Of a DNA stretch of 64,000 nt, positions 32,914 through 41,168 are shown one piece after another. The notes under the pieces are model-generated. The model was not told where the DNA came from. It did not search any database and saw only the letters and a program-made list of their open reading frames with translations. Each line of letters opens with the position of its first letter. The stretch's first letter is position 1. Location: the NCBI GenBank assembly GCA_019057865.1, contig JAHLWP010000007.1, positions 75,005 to 139,004 on the forward strand, read 5' to 3'. This DNA comes from Promethearchaeota archaeon (GTDB lineage Archaea; Asgardarchaeota; Lokiarchaeia; Sigyniarchaeales; SOKP01). A program made the position numbers and the translations under genes.

Positions 32914-33861
32914 TCAAAATTTTGATAAGTCATCAATTCTCTGGTCTAATTTAGAAATAACTTCATCCCAATTAGATAAGATTTCTTCTACTTTAGGAAT
33001 AACTATATCTCTTTCCTTATATTCTAAATAATCTAAGAACTCTTTAATATTTTCAATTTTCATAAAAGTTTCTGCAACATACTTGCGAATCTCGGATTTT
33101 TGATTATCTAGAACTTCAGGAACTCTGTTGTGTTCCCCACGTCGTATTAATGTCGCTATATATTCTTCTGTTCCTTGCAAAAGGGAATTTAATTGATTTA
33201 TCCGTTCCATGATAAATTTTTCATAGGACTCAAAAATTCTATCTTTTGGGAAAAAATTAGTAATATCTATGATAAATTTCTGGGTTAGCTTAACTAATTG
33301 CTCCATACTTTCATATCCTTCAATTATATAATCAACAGTATGATAAGATGCTTCAATACCTTTATTAACATCATTCAATCTAAAAATTTTAAAACCAGGA
33401 TCATTTTTTAATCGCTTTTCGGGATCCCCTTTTTTGTCTGCTACCTCGATTTGACGTATTAACCTTGTTGGATTAAATACGAGAGAAACTGCTAATGGAT
33501 TATTGGTTTGATAAGACAATGTGGTTTTAATATCTATGTGGCTCATCATTACTTTAAAACCGGGATGAGAATGCCACCAACCTACTGTAAATTCTTCTCG
33601 AGAAAACGCCTTATCATCAATAATATATAAAGCTTCATAATCTTCATCTGACCATTTATATTGGTCGATAACGGCATCCTTATCGAGTTTTTGATGCATA
33701 ATGGGATAGGCTGCAGCAATCATTATGTCATCACCTTCATTTTTACCAATAAAAACACCACTTACTTCAAGCCAATCATCTTTTAGGATTTTCTGGTTAG
33801 CAAACCTCACAGTGGCAGCAACAATTGTCAAATAAACTTTCTTAGGGATGATTACTACCAT
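32914..33861 (-). CDS. JAB1/MPN (JAMM) domain protein with helical C-terminus, intact motif
   Basis: LEVSGVFIG ... VGWWHSHPGFKVMMSHID (E, HxH-x7-S-x2-D). Confidence 0.85.
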   Translation of the reverse strand: MVVIIPKKVYLTIVAATVRFANQKILKDDWLEVSGVFIGKNEGDDIMIAAAYPIMHQKLDKDAVIDQYKWSDEDYEALYIIDDKAFSREEFTVGWWHSHPGFKVMMSHIDIKTTLSYQTNNPLAVSLVFNPTRLIRQIEVADKKGDPEKRLKNDPGFKIFRLNDVNKGIEASYHTVDYIIEGYESMEQLVKLTQKFIIDITNFFPKDRIFESYEKFIMERINQLNSLLQGTEEYIATLIRRGEHNRVPEVLDNQKSEIRKYVAETFMKIENIKEFLDYLEYKERDIVIPKVEEILSNWDEVISKLDQRIDDLSKF

Positions 33862-34027
33862 ATTCTTAAATCATTTTTTTAATTATTCAAATGGAATTAT
33901 ATTGATTAATACTAATTTTACTATTTATGTTTTAGTTTGAATATAAAATTATATAACTATGAAATTTATATTATAATATTATTACAATATTCAATTCTCA
34001 AAATTATATGCAATTTTATAGATAATT

Positions 34028-34681
34028 ATGTCATTAAATTTTGAACCATTAACAAGTCAATTGGGTGTTCCTGGGACTTCCTATAGACTTCAATTAGGAT
34101 CAATTAATGGGAAATGGGCTTGTAGATTATTGAAGGGAAAAAATGTAATTGATTCTTATGTATTCAAAGATGAAGATGTGCTAGATGATATTCCTAATCA
34201 AAATCGAATTGTTTCATGGGTCTTAATGACTGTAGCTATTCCAAATATAAACCCTCATCAAATTATGAAAACAACGCAGGCCTTGGTCAAACAAGCACTC
34301 AAAAAGAAGGAAGAAAGAAAAGCAGTAGCACCCATATCTGAAACAAAAAAAGTAGAGTTAGAGAGAGTTCCCGAAAGTGAATTGAAACGACCTAAAGTGG
34401 CTGGATGGGTTAAAGAAGAGGGAATGAAAACAGTTCAGGAATTAGAAGATGAAAAACGACAAGCATTTAAAGAAAGGATGATCCATAAAAGGGAAGAAGA
34501 AAGAACTCGAGAGGCTTCTACTTTAAAAACTTCAAGAGAATTACCATCTATTCCTACAGGTGCAGGTGGAACAAATGTATCTGCTGGTGCTGAGGTATCA
34601 AAATTTTGTCCATTTTGTGGAAAAGATTTAAACTGGAAATTTTGTCCTAATTGTGGGAAACCTCTACCCCATGAAGATTAA
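34028..34681 (+). CDS. Hypothetical protein with C-terminal double zinc ribbon
   Basis: FCPFCGKDLNWKFCPNCG at the C-terminus, after a charged low-complexity linker. Confidence 0.75.
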   Translation: MSLNFEPLTSQLGVPGTSYRLQLGSINGKWACRLLKGKNVIDSYVFKDEDVLDDIPNQNRIVSWVLMTVAIPNINPHQIMKTTQALVKQALKKKEERKAVAPISETKKVELERVPESELKRPKVAGWVKEEGMKTVQELEDEKRQAFKERMIHKREEERTREASTLKTSRELPSIPTGAGGTNVSAGAEVSKFCPFCGKDLNWKFCPNCGKPLPHED

Positions 34682-34822
34682 TTTATTATTATTTTAGTAA
34701 AATCTATTTTTGAAAAAAATTATTTTTAATTTCTAAAATTCAATTCAAAAATTTAAAACATTTAAATTATATATGGATAAAAAATTAACTATATCTAAAA
34801 CTCATAAAAATCGTGATTAAAT

Positions 34823-36298
34823 TTGACATCTGATAAAACTGTCATCATTAAACCACTCGCGTATTATAAAATGCTCATTCATGTTTTACGTTTTGGTTCT
34901 AAAGTAAGAGATCGCAAACAATATAAAGAGGTAATGGGGATCTTAATTGGTCGTCTTGAGTCAGGAGAACCTGATAAAAAAGGGATCAATGATGTAATTG
35001 TGGAAGATGCAGTACCAATTTCCCATGGCGGCTCAATAGAAGTTGATTTTGCCCCAGAAGATTATGTAACATTCTCCATGGTAGATGCAGAATTTGCAGA
35101 AAAAGGATGGTTTAGTGTAGGGTGGTACCATTCACACCCTGGTTTGAAGATATTCTTTTCGAGTACGGATATAAAAAACATGCTTGGTTGGCAGACTCCG
35201 AACCCAAGCGCTATTGGAATTGTCTTCGACCATACTTTCTTAGAAAAACCCGGAGATATGGGATTTCGCGCATTTAGATTAGATGACACTTCTAAAGGCC
35301 AAACAACAGGGTATCATGAAGTAAGAACTGTAGTCGAACCTCCAGATAGTCTTGAATATTACCAAAGACTTATGGAATTAATTAACAGTGTTCACTCTAA
35401 AGAACCGCCAATCTTAGAACTTAATGAATTGCCTGACTTATTTGGTGATATTGCTATTCCTAGTCAAGATCAATTAATAACTAAAAAACCAGAATTAGAA
35501 TTAACTAAAATATTTTCTGCTATCCAGAATGGAATATCAAGTTTTTTAGAGTTGACAATTGAACCATCTGTTAAATTTCTTAATACGTGGAGTCAAGAGA
35601 TGATTAGAAAAACCATTGAATCTAATTTAGAAATGAGAAATAACATTTTAGCTATAAAGGAAAAGATTGGAAATGGTATCTCTAATATACAAAAAGATTT
35701 TAAATTTTCCTTAAAAGATAAATTGAATCAATTAGATATGTATATCGATGATAAATTTGATGAATTTGATAATAACAATGAAAATCTTAAAGAAATTATA
35801 AGTCAAATTAAAATTGAACTTAATGATAAATTGAAGGTCATATTTGAAGAAAAGCTAAAGGTTTCTCTAGATCAAGGTATAAACTCGTTTAAAGAAAATC
35901 TAGAAAATTTAACAAAAATAAATCAAGAAAGTTCTATTTTTATTGAAAAATTAGAAGGTGAACGCAAGTCTCTAAATAATGTATCAGAGAATATTAATTC
36001 TATTGAAGATTCAATCAACAATAAATTAAAGAATATACAAGACGAAGTCATAAATAAACTATCCAAAAACACTAATAAAATTGTTGGAAATTTTATTAAT
36101 TTAAATAAAGACACAAAGAGTTTCTTATCAGATTTAAAAGCCGCAATTATATTACTGGAAAGTTCAAAGAATCCTATACAGAATAAGATAAAAATCTTAG
36201 AAACAGAAAATAAGACCCTCCAAAAAGATTTATTAGAGTTGAAAAATGAAAATCAAGATTTAATGATTAAATTAAAAAAATATGAAGGAGGAGAATAA
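34823..36298 (+). CDS. JAB1/MPN (JAMM) domain protein with long coiled coil, intact motif
   Basis: KEVMGILIG ... VGWYHSHPGLKIFFSSTD, IVFD; ~260-aa helical/coiled-coil tail. Confidence 0.88.
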   Translation: MTSDKTVIIKPLAYYKMLIHVLRFGSKVRDRKQYKEVMGILIGRLESGEPDKKGINDVIVEDAVPISHGGSIEVDFAPEDYVTFSMVDAEFAEKGWFSVGWYHSHPGLKIFFSSTDIKNMLGWQTPNPSAIGIVFDHTFLEKPGDMGFRAFRLDDTSKGQTTGYHEVRTVVEPPDSLEYYQRLMELINSVHSKEPPILELNELPDLFGDIAIPSQDQLITKKPELELTKIFSAIQNGISSFLELTIEPSVKFLNTWSQEMIRKTIESNLEMRNNILAIKEKIGNGISNIQKDFKFSLKDKLNQLDMYIDDKFDEFDNNNENLKEIISQIKIELNDKLKVIFEEKLKVSLDQGINSFKENLENLTKINQESSIFIEKLEGERKSLNNVSENINSIEDSINNKLKNIQDEVINKLSKNTNKIVGNFINLNKDTKSFLSDLKAAIILLESSKNPIQNKIKILETENKTLQKDLLELKNENQDLMIKLKKYEGGE

Positions 36299-37711
36299 TT
36301 GAAAATGCCTGAAAATGAATTAAACAACAATAAGGACAAAAATGAGAAAGATCAAACCATTCCAACGAAAAATAGACAAATAATAATAAAAAAAGAAGCT
36401 TTCAGGAATATGATAACCCATGTTTTAAGATTTGGAAGCATTGCATTAGAAAAGAGTGTAGAGGTTATGGGCATTTGCTTAGGAGAATTAACTGAGAATG
36501 AGAAAGACATTGTTTTAATCAATGCTATTCCGATTACTCATGGAAAAAAAGTATCAGCAGGTTTTACTAAAGACGATTATGATTTATTAACTCAACTTGA
36601 AAAACAATATCAAAAGAAGAATCTTAATATTGTAGGATGGTATAGTTCACACCCCGGGTGGGGTCTTTATTTTTCTGACTTAGAGATAAAAACTCATCAA
36701 TTTTTTCAAAAGGAAAGTAATCCTAACGGATTTTTTGTTGTTTTTGATCATACTTTAATGGATAAAGATAAGACTTTTGGTTTTGAGATTTATAGATTTG
36801 ATGATTTTAAAAAAGCAGATAAATATCATAATGTAGTATTTGAAATTGAAGAACCAGCAACCCTAGATTATTTTAAATGGGTTCAGAAATTTGTAGAAGA
36901 TTTTCAAAAACAGACATCTATCTTAATTAAAGAAATTAGTGAATCAAAAGAGTCAATTCCGGGTGAATTACAAGAAATACCAATATCAGAGGAAATATCA
37001 CCAGAAGAAGAATTTGATGATTATTCACAAATTTCACCGATAATTTCAGGATTTCAAAAAGGAGTGTCTAGATTTTCTGAATCGGTGATAGATACCTTCA
37101 AGTCTCAATTTGGAGATTGGACCAATGATCTTAAAGAAGGATCTTCGAAAGGTTCAGAATATTTACGTAATAGTGTAAATAAAATGAAAGAGGCAGCATC
37201 TCAGAGTCTTATTAAAGTAGAGAATTGGTTTAAAAAAAATTTAGATAGTATGTTAAACGAATTTAAAGAAACTGTGGTTAATTATGTAGATAATAGAGTT
37301 GAAGCTCAGACTGAACTCAGAAATGATCTCAATAATATAAAAAATGATCTTTTTAATGATTTAAATATCGTTGTTGATGAAAATTTAAAATATATTAAAA
37401 GTGAAATAGCATCTGTTGTTAAATTAACAACTGAAAAAGTAAATAATAGCACTCAAATAAATTCTAAGATTGAAGAGATGATTGGCAGTATTTCTAAAGT
37501 AATCTTAGCAATTGAAAATGAATCAAGTGATCTAGGTAGTAAAATAGAAAAAAATATTGAAACAACGATTGATCAATTTGAAACAAGTATTAATGAAAAA
37601 ATTGAAAAAATGAGTTCAGAATTACAACCATTTAAAGAATATTACTTAGAAATTAGTGAATTGTTAGAAAAGTTACAAAAAATAATCACAGATTTTCGCA
37701 TGAAGATATAG
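36299..37711 (+). CDS. MPN domain protein with degenerate JAMM motif and long coiled coil
   Basis: VEVMGICLG ... VGWYSSHPGWGLYFSDLE (first His to Ser, Asp to Glu); abuts the previous gene. Confidence 0.85.
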   Translation: MKMPENELNNNKDKNEKDQTIPTKNRQIIIKKEAFRNMITHVLRFGSIALEKSVEVMGICLGELTENEKDIVLINAIPITHGKKVSAGFTKDDYDLLTQLEKQYQKKNLNIVGWYSSHPGWGLYFSDLEIKTHQFFQKESNPNGFFVVFDHTLMDKDKTFGFEIYRFDDFKKADKYHNVVFEIEEPATLDYFKWVQKFVEDFQKQTSILIKEISESKESIPGELQEIPISEEISPEEEFDDYSQISPIISGFQKGVSRFSESVIDTFKSQFGDWTNDLKEGSSKGSEYLRNSVNKMKEAASQSLIKVENWFKKNLDSMLNEFKETVVNYVDNRVEAQTELRNDLNNIKNDLFNDLNIVVDENLKYIKSEIASVVKLTTEKVNNSTQINSKIEEMIGSISKVILAIENESSDLGSKIEKNIETTIDQFETSINEKIEKMSSELQPFKEYYLEISELLEKLQKIITDFRMKI

Positions 37712-37745
37712 TGGTTAATGAATTACATATATAGAGGGATCTGAG

Positions 37746-37934
37746 TTGACACCGTCAAGAAAGAAAATGTTAAAGAAGGTAGACGAAGCTATAAAAGTAT
37801 TGGATAATCAAATCAACAATCCTGATGGGATCGATGAAAACAAGCTAAAAGAGTTAATGGAATTGAAGGAAGAACTCGAGAAATCAAAAAAAGTGATAAA
37901 AAAGAGACACTTTGACCTCTTACCTTACAGGTAA
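37746..37934 (+). CDS. Small helical-hairpin protein at the end of the MPN operon
   Basis: 62-aa ORF with GAGG RBS, two amphipathic helices. Confidence 0.55.
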   Translation: MTPSRKKMLKKVDEAIKVLDNQINNPDGIDENKLKELMELKEELEKSKKVIKKRHFDLLPYR

Positions 37935-38254
37935 GAAGGAATAAAATCAACTAAAAAATTAAAGATTTCTGAAGTGAGCTGAAAGCTCATGATTAATTTC
38001 TACATCTCTAATTTTTTAGAGATATATATAATATGTTATATCCGGGAGGAGTTGAGCGAGAAAGTTATAAAATAAATAAAAATTTAGGCATAGAAGTTTT
38101 TTTTTATATGATTCTGATCTTTTATTTAATTTTTTTATTTCTTATTTTTATATCCATTTGTCAATTTTTGATTACAAAAGAGCAGAGATTACGATTATGG
38201 ATCCATGGAGGATGATTTTGACTATTGGGAAGAGACAGTAGGTGTAAAAATGGT

Positions 38255-38539
38255 TTAGAAAAATTTCAAGTTTGAAACTTTAGAAATTTGTAATCTATAT
38301 TTCGGAATGTTAGTATTCAATCGCTTTAAATGATTCAATTTAGCGATTTTGCCTAAAACTCTTCCGATTCTGTCAACTTTAACGTCAATTCCAAAATTTT
38401 CTTTAAGAACTGAATTAATTTTATAGGACGATAATATAACAACACGTGAGATATTTTTTTCACATAACAACTCAATTGCTTTTTTTACTAAGCTAATTAG
38501 AGTTTCTTTATTATCTATCTTAATTTTTTCCATTCTCAA
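38255..38539 (-). CDS. Small basic hypothetical protein (possible winged helix)
   Basis: 94-aa K-rich ORF. Confidence 0.55.
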   Translation of the reverse strand: MRMEKIKIDNKETLISLVKKAIELLCEKNISRVVILSSYKINSVLKENFGIDVKVDRIGRVLGKIAKLNHLKRLNTNIPKYRLQISKVSNLKFF

Positions 38540-38819: not shown

Positions 38820-41168
38820 ATGAAAAAAAGAGAGTCTTTATCGACCCTTCGAACAAAAATTGCAGCCTTTAAGTCAAGAACAGGTGAAAAATTAAAGGTA
38901 TTTGCGGATAAACTTGTTCACAAGGAAGTCTATGTTGATGGGCAAGAACCTCCAAAATCTTATTCATTTGAAAAAAAGTTCTTTGGCTTATATTTCATTT
39001 TTATAATATCTTCTTTTGTCTTAATATTAACAATTAACATTTCACAAAAGAATTCTATAAATACAGTAATTTTTGCTATTTCAAATGCAATTGTTGCATT
39101 CTTTCTAGTACTATCTGGATTGTTAAGTATAGATAGATTTAGAATTTTCTTATTTGAAGAAAAAACTTTAATTAAACAACTTATTCTTTATTCAGGTTTA
39201 TTTACTTTACTTATTCCCGTTTCTTTTTATATCTCAACAGATATTAACTTTATTACGTATTTATTGATTTTCGCAATGATATGGTTATTTCTTCTAAGTA
39301 GCAAATTCTATATTTATTCTAGGAAATTTGCTACAAAAATTGAAGCTAGATTTATTAAAAAATATTCTATCCTTAGATATCTTGTCGCAATTATTATCCC
39401 CTTTTTAATATTAGGTGTTCTTGTTATTCTTTCACTATTTTATAGGACTTTTTTAGTGTGGCTCTCATTGGATTTCTTTGGAAATAGTGATCCTAGTTCT
39501 GCTGTTGCTGTATATAATCTAGAAATGCGTGTAGTTATGCCGCTAATTTATTTTAGTTTGGTATTAACATTAGTATTTATAATTTTTGAATTTGTTTTTA
39601 CTAGAAGGCGTGCAGAAACAAAAAGAGCTGGAACTTTTGATAATTTTACTTTTTCTTTAATTGTTTTATTCATCTTTTTCTTTCAAATTTTACAAATCAG
39701 TATCTTTATGTTATTAAGACCAGAAACAATAGATGCCTTTAAAGCAACGGTAGGAGTTATTGGCTCGCCTGTCGGTTATATTATAATTTTTGAGTCTGTC
39801 ATTTCTATGTATTTTCTATATAGGGTTATTAAAAAAACTGGTAGAACATTAGGTTGGCGTATCTTTATATTTAAGAAAGATGGATTAATTTTGTTCTTTT
39901 TAGCATGTGTCCTCGCTCAAACTATGACACGTTTTGCACTAGCAAATGAAATAGCAAATCAAGAAATAACTCCAATAGGAACATTGTTAATGGCGGATAA
40001 ATATGTAATTTCAGTATTGATGATTTTTCTCTTAGGTAGTACTTTATTAGTCTATTATATAAAACCTCATGAGACTTCAATGTTCATGAGACTTCAAAAA
40101 GAATTAGTATATGATGAAGAAAAGAATATTGAAAAAATTTATAACATTATAAGAAGTGAATATATCCGGAGGGGAGAGGCTTTTCCAATTGAAATACTTG
40201 AACGTGAATTAATTAAAGCAACTCGACTATCAAAAGGTAATGTTTACTCTCTAGTTGAGCAATTAGCGATAAAAGATATGGATATTCTGATAACCGAGAG
40301 AAAAGAAGAATTTGGAACACCCGTAAAATTTATAGATTTCACCTCTGTTACCGAACGATTTGATAGAAAAGAAATAGCACAAGAAAAAGCTAAAAAATAT
40401 TTAACCAAAAGATTATATGAAACAAGTTTGGCGAAAAGGAGTGAAAAAAGCAGATTAAAAGCTGTCAGCGAATCAGAAAAAGCTTCAGATCAACTTATTA
40501 CCTCTCTTACTGCAAATTATACAAAAAAGCAAGTAGATGAACGAGAAATTGAAAAAGTAAAAGAAGAAGCAAAAGTAACAGAAGATTTGAGAGTAAAGTT
40601 AACAGATGCTTTAAAAAATCAACTATTACAAACGATTAAAAATGAATACTTCTATAGGATTGAGAACAATGATAAATATTTAGACTTTTATGTCCCTATT
40701 TCTGAAGTGTCAGATCAAATTGAATTAAATACGAAAATCACTCCTGGAGAATTATATCCCATTTTAGAAAGTCTCAGTATTATTGATTTGGAATTGACTC
40801 TAATTGATAATCCTGATGAACCTGAAGATAAGAAAATCAAATTCTTACCCTTTGCTGATGATAATATGAACTTTTCTTTAGCAAATTTTCGACCAGAAGA
40901 GTATGCTAAATTTAAAATTAATGTAATTAAAAATTTTCATAGAGCTCTTAAAACTAAGAAAGAAAAAAGAAGTTTATTTCAGTTGAAAAAAGGGATTTCA
41001 GATAAATTCGAAGGTCAAAAATCATGGCTTAGTTTATTAGATAATTTATATAGATATTATCCTTTATATACTGAAAAATTATCTTCTGTTCCTAATACAA
41101 CAAAACTTAGAAATCAGTTGAGGAAAATGGAAGAATTTTATGAAAGAAAACATAACTTAAACAGTTAA
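38820..41168 (+). CDS. Polytopic membrane protein with a cytoplasmic C-terminus containing a duplicated domain
   Basis: About 10-11 TM segments in residues ~55-415, then two related ~75-aa segments. Confidence 0.75.
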   Translation: MKKRESLSTLRTKIAAFKSRTGEKLKVFADKLVHKEVYVDGQEPPKSYSFEKKFFGLYFIFIISSFVLILTINISQKNSINTVIFAISNAIVAFFLVLSGLLSIDRFRIFLFEEKTLIKQLILYSGLFTLLIPVSFYISTDINFITYLLIFAMIWLFLLSSKFYIYSRKFATKIEARFIKKYSILRYLVAIIIPFLILGVLVILSLFYRTFLVWLSLDFFGNSDPSSAVAVYNLEMRVVMPLIYFSLVLTLVFIIFEFVFTRRRAETKRAGTFDNFTFSLIVLFIFFFQILQISIFMLLRPETIDAFKATVGVIGSPVGYIIIFESVISMYFLYRVIKKTGRTLGWRIFIFKKDGLILFFLACVLAQTMTRFALANEIANQEITPIGTLLMADKYVISVLMIFLLGSTLLVYYIKPHETSMFMRLQKELVYDEEKNIEKIYNIIRSEYIRRGEAFPIEILERELIKATRLSKGNVYSLVEQLAIKDMDILITERKEEFGTPVKFIDFTSVTERFDRKEIAQEKAKKYLTKRLYETSLAKRSEKSRLKAVSESEKASDQLITSLTANYTKKQVDEREIEKVKEEAKVTEDLRVKLTDALKNQLLQTIKNEYFYRIENNDKYLDFYVPISEVSDQIELNTKITPGELYPILESLSIIDLELTLIDNPDEPEDKKIKFLPFADDNMNFSLANFRPEEYAKFKINVIKNFHRALKTKKEKRSLFQLKKGISDKFEGQKSWLSLLDNLYRYYPLYTEKLSSVPNTTKLRNQLRKMEEFYERKHNLNS

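Follow-up and report, generated by a model that had tools for sequence, protein, structure and literature searches.

Introduction

The proteasome lid, the signalosome, eIF3, and BRISC of eukaryotes are all characterized by pairs of one active and one inactive MPN protein, and the locus described here raises the question of whether an archaeon may possess such a pair and, if so, whether it prefigures the eukaryotic pairs or merely runs parallel to them. The locus lies in a 64,000-nucleotide stretch of DNA (hereafter, the window; C87:75005-139004, that is, contig JAHLWP010000007.1), which is AT-rich, with approximately 28% GC, and is part of the 4.26-Mb genome, assembled in 87 contigs, of a member of the Promethearchaeia, i.e., a Loki-type Asgard archaeon. 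It contains three genes with JAMM/MPN domains, named MPN1, MPN2, and MPN3 here, for which a first-pass annotation had proposed an archaeal MPN+/MPN- complex. The analysis presented here indicates that MPN2 and MPN3 are tandem paralogs that originated within a single Asgard family, in which MPN3 has lost its zinc site on several occasions while remaining under purifying selection. The MPN+/MPN- organization was stated as not known in archaea in a 2018 paper (PMC6043591), and no description of the MPN2/MPN3 family was found in the literature that was searched.

A tandem pair of tailed MPN paralogs

The two genes of the pair are found on the forward strand. The MPN2 gene (34823-36298) encodes a JAMM/MPN+ protein of 491 amino acids with an intact catalytic motif, HSHPGLKIFFSSTD, and is followed by MPN3, which has 468 amino acids when read from an ATG (36305-37711), or 470 from a TTG (36299-37711), and presents a degenerate zinc site. 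In the MPN3 motif, SSHPGWGLYFSDLE, the first histidine is replaced by serine and the aspartate by glutamate, with the upstream glutamate, the second histidine, and the serine being retained; this sequence fails the catalytic motif E...HxH...S..D, and the protein counts as MPN-. The third gene, MPN1 (32914-33861, reverse strand), is transcribed divergently and encodes a JAMM/MPN+ protein of 315 amino acids with the complete motif, HSHPGFKVMMSHID, and a helical tail of approximately 130 residues. All three proteins pass the curated cut-off (22.5 bits) of the Pfam family JAB (PF01398), with 52.8 bits (E 4.3e-14) for MPN1, 46.6 bits (E 4e-12) for MPN2, and 58.5 bits (E 7e-16) for MPN3, and the prokaryotic models fit them poorly, given that the NCBIfam desampylase model, whose cut-off is 130 bits, yields 16-20, and Prok-JAB falls below or near its cut-off. 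The three open reading frames and motifs reported by the first-pass annotation, including the divergent orientation of the intact MPN1, were all recovered. The same annotation had MPN3 beginning at the base right after MPN2, and a TTG is indeed found at 36299, immediately behind the stop codon of MPN2, but the ATG at 36305 is preceded by a GGAGGAG box of the Shine-Dalgarno type, and the resulting 468-residue protein is the entry in the protein collection, so that this ATG is probably the true start, which would leave a gap of 6 nucleotides between the two genes.

The description of the second gene as a paralog of the first was borne out over its full length, given that MPN2 and MPN3 share 27% identity over 460 BLASTP columns, and their profiles align (hhalign) with an E of 1.5e-67 over 407 columns that extend well into the tails. 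These alignments identify MPN3 as a paralog of MPN2 over its entire length, including the tail. In MPN2, an MPN domain at approximately residues 1-200, which includes a segment (PISHGGSIEVDF) that resembles and aligns with the Ins-1 of Rpn11, is followed by an amphipathic helical tail of some 280 residues, and its best matches in the PDB are Rpn11, CsRpn11, CSN5, and BRCC36. The AlphaFold2 monomer model of MPN3 was derived from a 28-row alignment and has a mean predicted local distance difference test score (pLDDT) of 68. In this model, residues 25-200 form the MPN domain, residues 204-279 are a stretch of low confidence, and residues 270-467 are a single unbroken helix, i.e., a tail consisting of a helix of approximately 200 residues. 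The top Foldseek match of the modeled MPN domain is Rpn11 from the structures of the Rpn8-Rpn11 dimer (E 4.5e-12), followed by CSN5, eIF3, and BRCC36. Similarly, the MPN3 profile matches BRCC36 (best, E 6e-11), CSN5, and Rpn11, and none of the 37 PDB chains that it matches by sequence is Rpn8, CSN6, or Abraxas.

The tails had been described as long coiled coils, which is partly apt. Long helices are indeed predicted, but the hydrophobic period in both MPN2 and MPN3 is 3.6-3.7, and the heptad period of 3.5 is limited to the final 75 or so residues of MPN2, because of which the tails are better read, from their sequences, as long amphipathic helices that are mostly not heptad coiled coils. When compared with family profiles, they matched apolipoprotein, phasin, and ZorA only below threshold, and these matches were read as compositional. 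After the MPN domain, a stretch of MPN3 (approximately residues 243-275) is conserved, with W272 invariant and G253 and Q268 nearly so, and the matching stretch of MPN2 is also conserved, with P248 and W256 invariant. Despite this conservation, the MPN3 stretch has a pLDDT below 50 in the monomer model, a pattern typically seen where a segment becomes folded upon contact with a partner.

A synteny scan of one genome per species yielded 56 loci, in nearly all of which the gene order is ATP-grasp, cobaltochelatase-like AAA/VWA, MPN1 (reverse strand), a zinc-ribbon protein (ZnR), MPN2 and MPN3 (forward strand), a 94-residue gene (reverse strand), a membrane protein of approximately 800 residues, and a transporter of the major facilitator superfamily. 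The gap between MPN2 and MPN3 is 6-20 nucleotides across the related species, and most of the 56 loci have MPN1 as a neighbor.

Repeated loss of the zinc site in MPN3

The catalytic motifs were surveyed in the 56 loci plus the window, and separately in 120 database proteins. MPN2 retains the E, H, H, S, and D residues in all 53 of its copies, and the 34 uninterrupted copies of MPN1 all carry a complete motif (E/H/H/S(T)/D), with eight further orthologs being interrupted by the insert described below, the removal of which restores the motif. In MPN3, by contrast with the constancy of its partner, the motif is complete in 33 of 55 species, and one or more of its residues have been lost in the other 22; the database survey, with 60 intact proteins among the 120, presents the same picture. 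An intact MPN3 ortholog is encoded, for example, in CP070805.1. An active protein and a paralog with a degenerate zinc site are thus found together in the window and in 22 of the 55 species, and both motifs are kept in 33.

The replacements in the clade of the window are ESHSE, EIHSE, and ESHSS, and those found elsewhere are unrelated to one another (EIRTT/ELRTT, ESHSA, ELHSG, EIHND, ECHID, and AHHSD). When the motif columns were removed prior to the inference of the trees, at least four changes of state were needed on the concatenated MPN2+MPN3 tree, and at least five on the MPN3 tree, which points to the independent loss of the zinc site in at least 4-5 lineages, including the genus of the window. 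The histidine-to-serine and aspartate-to-glutamate changes highlighted by the first-pass annotation do recur as the ESHSE form in the clade of the window, but they are not family-wide, given that other lineages have different replacements or an intact site. As far as these motifs indicate, then, the MPN- status belongs to certain lineages and not to the whole family.

The ratios of nonsynonymous to synonymous substitutions (dN/dS, Nei-Gojobori) of MPN3 in the degenerate clades (0.18-0.35) are close to those of MPN2 (0.16-0.28), with the MPN3 of the intact clades falling mostly between 0.24 and 0.32, and the copies with a dead site are therefore still under purifying selection. The neighboring pair of intact and degenerate genes noted initially, with a complete motif in MPN2 and S-S-H...S..E in MPN3, thus has a maintained gene in each position. 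Given both the losses and this selection, MPN3 has a conserved role that is independent of catalysis, while that of MPN2 would depend on it.

One dead-site cassette, GWY[I/L]SRPGWGLDFT[E/D]IT, was observed in two groups of loci (L020, L028, L029, L039, and L050 versus L046 and L048). A single origin of this I/L-S-R...T..T variant was rejected by the approximately unbiased test of one clade (p 0.004, with the group having been named after the tree was seen), and the likeness between the groups is limited to approximately 60 alignment columns around the motif, which would be consistent with either convergence or a short tract of recombination or transfer.

Do MPN2 and MPN3 work together?

The explanation of the locus to which we lean, albeit by no more than a modest preference, is that a group of “tailed” JAMM/MPN proteins of the eukaryotic type is encoded by a conserved locus specific to one family of the Promethearchaeia. 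Here, MPN2 would be a working zinc isopeptidase, most likely removing ubiquitin or a ubiquitin-like modifier made from other loci, and MPN3 would most likely be its partner and serve as a scaffold or regulator, with contacts between the MPN domains and between the long helical tails, which would run in parallel, in the manner of Rpn8 for Rpn11 and Abraxas for BRCC36. It is proposed that the MPN3 zinc site decayed independently in several lineages because that of MPN2 suffices. The ZnR protein would probably be an adaptor, and the divergent MPN1, a further active member.

The heterodimer is the central element of this explanation. When full-length MPN2 and MPN3 were modeled together with alignments, the interaction prediction scores from aligned errors (ipSAE) were 0.53, 0.55, and 0.63 (median 0.55), and none of the three controls exceeded 0.00. 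The prediction tool grades this result as “weak support”: its mark is one that 58 of 80 solved complexes attain, along with 2 of 110 mismatched pairs, and scores at the mark but no higher than 0.60 include just 7 of the 80 solved complexes and both of the passing mismatches. The runs had at least 41% of their contacts in common, with a partner pLDDT of at least 59 and no interface reported. As MPN-MPN dimers are present in the PDB, the pass may partly reflect likeness to known structures. Even so, a heterodimer of MPN2 and MPN3 is the most likely reading, one that we hold to be somewhat probable because the tandem is invariant, the tails are collinear, the conserved stretch is disordered in the monomer model, and the loss always affects the same partner. 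The heterodimer proposed by the first-pass annotation thus gains some computational backing, and is tempered by the fully intact motif of 33 of the 55 MPN3 orthologs, the retention of which that annotation had itself named as a finding that would speak against a complex; half of this objection applies.

A number of observations weigh against the preferred explanation, most of them by favoring a possible, although less probable, alternative in which MPN2 and MPN3 act separately, as monomers or homo-oligomers, with MPN3 serving, for example, as a receptor for ubiquitin or a ubiquitin-like modifier, or as a membrane or filament scaffold, and its zinc site being dispensable for that reason. The evidence of binding is a single prediction in the weak band, with no interface, and 60% of the species keep both sites intact, so that the ancestral and commonest state is one in which both enzymes are potentially active and could each act on their own. 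The tail period of 3.6-3.7 and the sub-threshold matches of the apolipoprotein and phasin type would also fit helices that bind to a membrane or some other surface. In addition, CsRpn11, the sole characterized archaeal Rpn11-like enzyme, is active alone and crystallizes as a homodimer (PMC6043591). Separate action, on the other hand, is difficult to reconcile with the strict, near-abutting tandem found in all 50+ species, the paralogy over the full length with collinear tails, and the complete failure of the controls in the complex prediction, and obligate MPN+/MPN- pairs show the pattern found here, in which catalysis is lost again and again from the same member.

Ubiquitin context and the likely substrate

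The final point against the preferred explanation concerns the substrate. A search for ubiquitin, E2, E1, and ThiS-type genes on the window's part of contig C87 returned none, in agreement with the first-pass annotation, and the genome carries such sets on other contigs. At C41:57500-68500 (L093), there is a canonical eukaryote-like operon, with three ubiquitin-like genes, a winged helix-turn-helix regulator, E1 (ThiF), E2, an MPN protein of 278 residues, and a membrane protein with a cysteine-rich, RING-like C-terminus, and further E1/E2(/MPN) sets are present on C54, C18, and C69. Because the locus has no linked gene for ubiquitin, E1, or E2, and an MPN protein of its own is already part of the canonical ubiquitin operon, the identification of ubiquitin or a ubiquitin-like modifier as the substrate is a guess.

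These same facts lend themselves to a rather unlikely alternative, in which the locus is not part of a ubiquitin system, and its proteins act on some other peptide or isopeptide substrate, process precursors, or form structural helices with MPN heads. JAMM domains have non-ubiquitin roles elsewhere, and the conserved neighbors of the pair are a membrane protein and a small protein without a family. However, the closest relatives of the pair, in both sequence and fold, are Rpn11, CSN5, and BRCC36, the Ins-1-like segment is present, and the several conjugation sets of the genome, for ubiquitin and ubiquitin-like modifiers, would need deconjugation, all of which weighs against this alternative.

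The lid, CSN, and eIF3 are PCI-MPN complexes, and the genome was searched for PCI-like proteins, none of which is encoded in the conserved neighborhood of the pair. The matches are on C87 at 29.7-30.6 kb (approximately 80 kb away, in a UFL1/DDRGK-like protein), C38, C54, and C42, and the MPN pair may associate with PCI proteins in trans. Two of these proteins combine several domains. The first, of 788 residues, is encoded on the reverse strand at G000:C87:28648-31011 (L098:648-3011), some 44 kb before the start of the window, and has three PCI-type winged-helix matches together with matches to the E3 UFM1-protein ligase (UFL1), DDRGK, and a VPS28-like C-terminus; its domain matches identify it as a component similar to those of UFMylation that is fused to an ESCRT-I-like domain. 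The second, encoded on C38 (G000; L099:408-2888), has 827 residues, with an array of leucine-rich repeats, a PCI-like winged helix, and a TIR domain.

Origin of the pair

The MPN2 profile was run against 151 genomes from across the phylum. Full-length MPN2 and MPN3 were found in all 25 genomes of the family of the window (f1), and the 26 other families sampled gave MPN-domain matches only, with an E of 1e-29 or weaker. Apparent stops inside the MPN2/MPN3 matches of some relatives were considered as a possible case of recoding, which was rejected, as they are the terminal stops of MPN2 that the search had read through. The genomes of the family have five to seven MPN genes each, with seven in that of the window, including two more tailed forms, of 373 and 506 residues. 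A tree of non-eukaryotic MPN domains recovered MPN2 and MPN3 as sister clades, with a support of 95 in the Shimodaira-Hasegawa-like approximate likelihood ratio test (SH-aLRT). Both are nested in a larger group (support of 91) that also includes MPN1 and the remaining tailed forms and is restricted to the family of the window plus one protein from the sister family. The MPN protein of the ubiquitin operon clusters, apart from MPN1, MPN2, and MPN3, with the MPN proteins of other Asgard families.

As MPN2 and MPN3 are sister paralogs confined to f1, the pair is therefore judged, from this distribution and the tree, to have arisen by duplication inside this one lineage. On the same grounds of distribution and paralogy, it would parallel the eukaryotic MPN+/MPN- pairs, rather than being their ancestor. 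A direct forerunner (ortholog) of Rpn11/Rpn8, CSN5/CSN6, or BRCC36/Abraxas, as might be suggested by the eukaryotic-type MPN domains and by partners that each combine an MPN domain with C-terminal helices, an architecture that resembles BRCC36/Abraxas, is extremely improbable given the restriction of the full-length proteins to f1, their status as mutual closest relatives, the matches of MPN3 to active enzymes, with no Rpn8, CSN6, or Abraxas, its intact motif in most species, and the lack of an adjacent PCI gene. The first-pass suggestion that the cluster prefigures the lid, CSN, and BRISC cores was abandoned for these reasons, and that of a parallel was kept.

A bolder extension of the preferred explanation, which we regard as doubtful, is that ZnR, MPN2, MPN3, and perhaps MPN1 assemble through amphipathic helical tails of approximately 30 nm into a multi-subunit machine with ubiquitin-isopeptidase activity that is anchored on a membrane or filament, an independently evolved archaeal analogue of BRISC or the lid in which MPN3 has repeatedly become an allosteric pseudo-enzyme partner. 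If this were true, the series of species from both-active to one-dead would provide a natural time-course of the birth of a pseudo-enzyme.

Accessory and neighboring genes

The zinc-ribbon protein that had been noted as flanking the pair is a conserved neighbor, found upstream of MPN2 in nearly all the loci. It is encoded at 34028-34681 on the forward strand, has 217 amino acids, and matches the Pfam families Zn_Ribbon_1 and DZR. An N-terminal alpha/beta domain of approximately 100 residues is followed by a charged linker with conserved short motifs, a helix, and a C-terminal double zinc ribbon of the form CPxCG...CPxCG. The N-terminal domain (34028-34330) is modeled by AlphaFold2 with a pLDDT of approximately 90, and nothing in the PDB matched its fold in Foldseek at an E of 0.001 or better; the best match of a wide VIA-align search was a de novo design (Z 6.3, within the noise band), and a search of the Atlas features gave no usable match. 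A profile search of 1.84 billion representatives, in turn, recovered 108 clusters (50% identity) at an E of 1e-10 or better, and in some metagenomic proteins the domain sits behind a Ras/Rab-like (Ras-family) GTPase domain (family proteins P0137, P0155, and P0211). None of the relatives from elsewhere adjoins an MPN gene in the three cases inspected, and among the proteins with this domain, only the ZnR ortholog at the locus is tied to the MPN pair. Given this, the domain is read as an interaction module of wider occurrence, probably of the Asgard archaea.

Downstream, the gene of the 94-residue protein (38255-38539, reverse strand) is convergent with MPN3 and is present in 50 of the 56 loci, with an identity of 63-88% across these 50 species. 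It has no significant match in Pfam or NCBIfam, with sub-threshold Pfam matches at an E of 0.07 or weaker. It is followed by a multi-pass membrane protein of 782 residues (38820-41168, forward strand), which has a large soluble C-terminal part, is present in at least 44 loci, and belongs to no Pfam or NCBIfam family, with the Atlas returning only its own cluster from the Promethearchaeota. The possibility that it is a paralog of the PCI-like proteins of the genome was ruled out by comparison. Both genes are conserved neighbors, and their functional link to the MPN genes is unproven.

A small helical protein had also been included in the proposed system. Its open reading frame, of 62 residues (37746-37934), does exist, but it lies inside a single-copy insertion of 544 nucleotides (positions 37701-38244 of the window) between MPN3 and the 94-residue gene, which is unique to this genome. 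The insertion is missing from the closest relatives, with MPN3 identities of 92% and 87%, where the gap is approximately 58 nucleotides; it is AT-rich and contains short imperfect inverted repeats and a second open reading frame, of 60 residues. No tblastn match to the 62-residue frame was found in the 56 related loci, and it was discarded as a subunit.

A candidate mini-intron in MPN1 orthologs

The MPN1 orthologs of eight species carry an insert of 30-32 nucleotides at one exact site inside the JAMM motif, between the codons of HSHPGF and KVMMSHID (loci L020, L024, L025, L026, L030, L052, L059, and L061; for example, approximately L061:4996-5025, reverse strand). The MPN1 of the window has no such insert. 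The inserts contain stop codons and, in five of these species, are also of a length that breaks the frame, with both halves of the gene being conserved. They were seen in DNA contigs from independent studies of salt marshes and marine sediments, and a search for sequences that carry them listed no RNA run.

All eight fit a canonical bulge-helix-bulge core, in which 3-nucleotide bulges flank a central helix of 4 base pairs formed by GG(C/U)U of the exon and A(G/A)(C/U)U of the intron. The helix has a compensatory change from C-G to U-A in one species and a change from G-C to G-U in another, and a cut after the second nucleotide of the bulge restores ...HSHPGFKVMMSHID... in frame. The insert thus looks like a mini-intron spliced by EndA in an Asgard mRNA, for which it is a candidate. 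Canonical translational bypass was also considered and rejected on a reading of the sequences, as the take-off and landing codons mismatch in L026 and L061. A 2026 preprint on Asgard introns deals with tRNA genes.

Comparison with known systems

The nearest known counterparts of the locus are the eukaryotic pairs. As in Rpn11-Rpn8 and CSN5-CSN6, MPN2 and MPN3 have the eukaryote-type MPN fold, one paralog keeps E...HxH...S..D while the other has lost zinc ligands, and both partners have helices C-terminal to the MPN domain. In contrast with these pairs, however, the duplication occurred within one Asgard family, the inactive state of MPN3 is fixed in some lineages only, there are no adjacent PCI partners, and the tails, of approximately 200-280 residues, are far longer than the helices of the proteasome lid; nor is the pair known to have a link to the proteasome. 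In BRCC36-Abraxas/KIAA0157, of the BRISC and BRCA1-A complexes, an MPN+ and an MPN- protein each have a C-terminal helical or coiled-coil region, as in the pair described here, but MPN3 resembles BRCC36, not Abraxas, and the tails are several times longer and have no detectable homology. Homologs of the remaining BRISC subunits were not seen, although no search aimed at them was made. Orthology of MPN3 to Rpn8, CSN6, eIF3f, or Abraxas was not found, with the protein being placed as the sister of MPN2 within f1 in a tree that holds no eukaryotic sequences.

Among the prokaryotic enzymes, CsRpn11 of Caldiarchaeum subterraneum (PDB 6FJU/6FJV) is an archaeal Rpn11-like JAMM protein which matches MPN2 at an E of 3.5e-8 but differs from it in having approximately 200 residues and an operon with ubiquitin, E1, E2, and E3, and in acting without a partner (PMC6043591). 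The geometry of the MPN dimer is parallel in CsRpn11 and antiparallel in Rpn8-Rpn11. The CsRpn11-type gene in the genome of the window is that of the 278-residue MPN protein on C41, in a clade apart from MPN1, MPN2, and MPN3. The HvJAMM1 desampylase and the Prok-JAB enzymes have the JAMM metalloprotease chemistry in common with the three proteins, but are single-domain enzymes, with no tails.

Set beside these systems, the locus would represent a lineage-specific, independently evolved MPN pair that has been caught at several stages on the way to an MPN+/MPN- organization. The 55 species, with an ancestral state in which both sites are intact plus at least 4-5 losses in the same partner, amount to a tractable and replicated natural experiment. 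Two questions may be addressed with it, namely how a catalytic subunit is converted into a pseudo-enzyme on which its partner depends, and whether activity already requires that subunit while its own site is still alive. They also provide a warning that the eukaryote-like MPN arrangements found in Asgard genomes are not all ancestral to those of the eukaryotic lid, signalosome, and BRISC.

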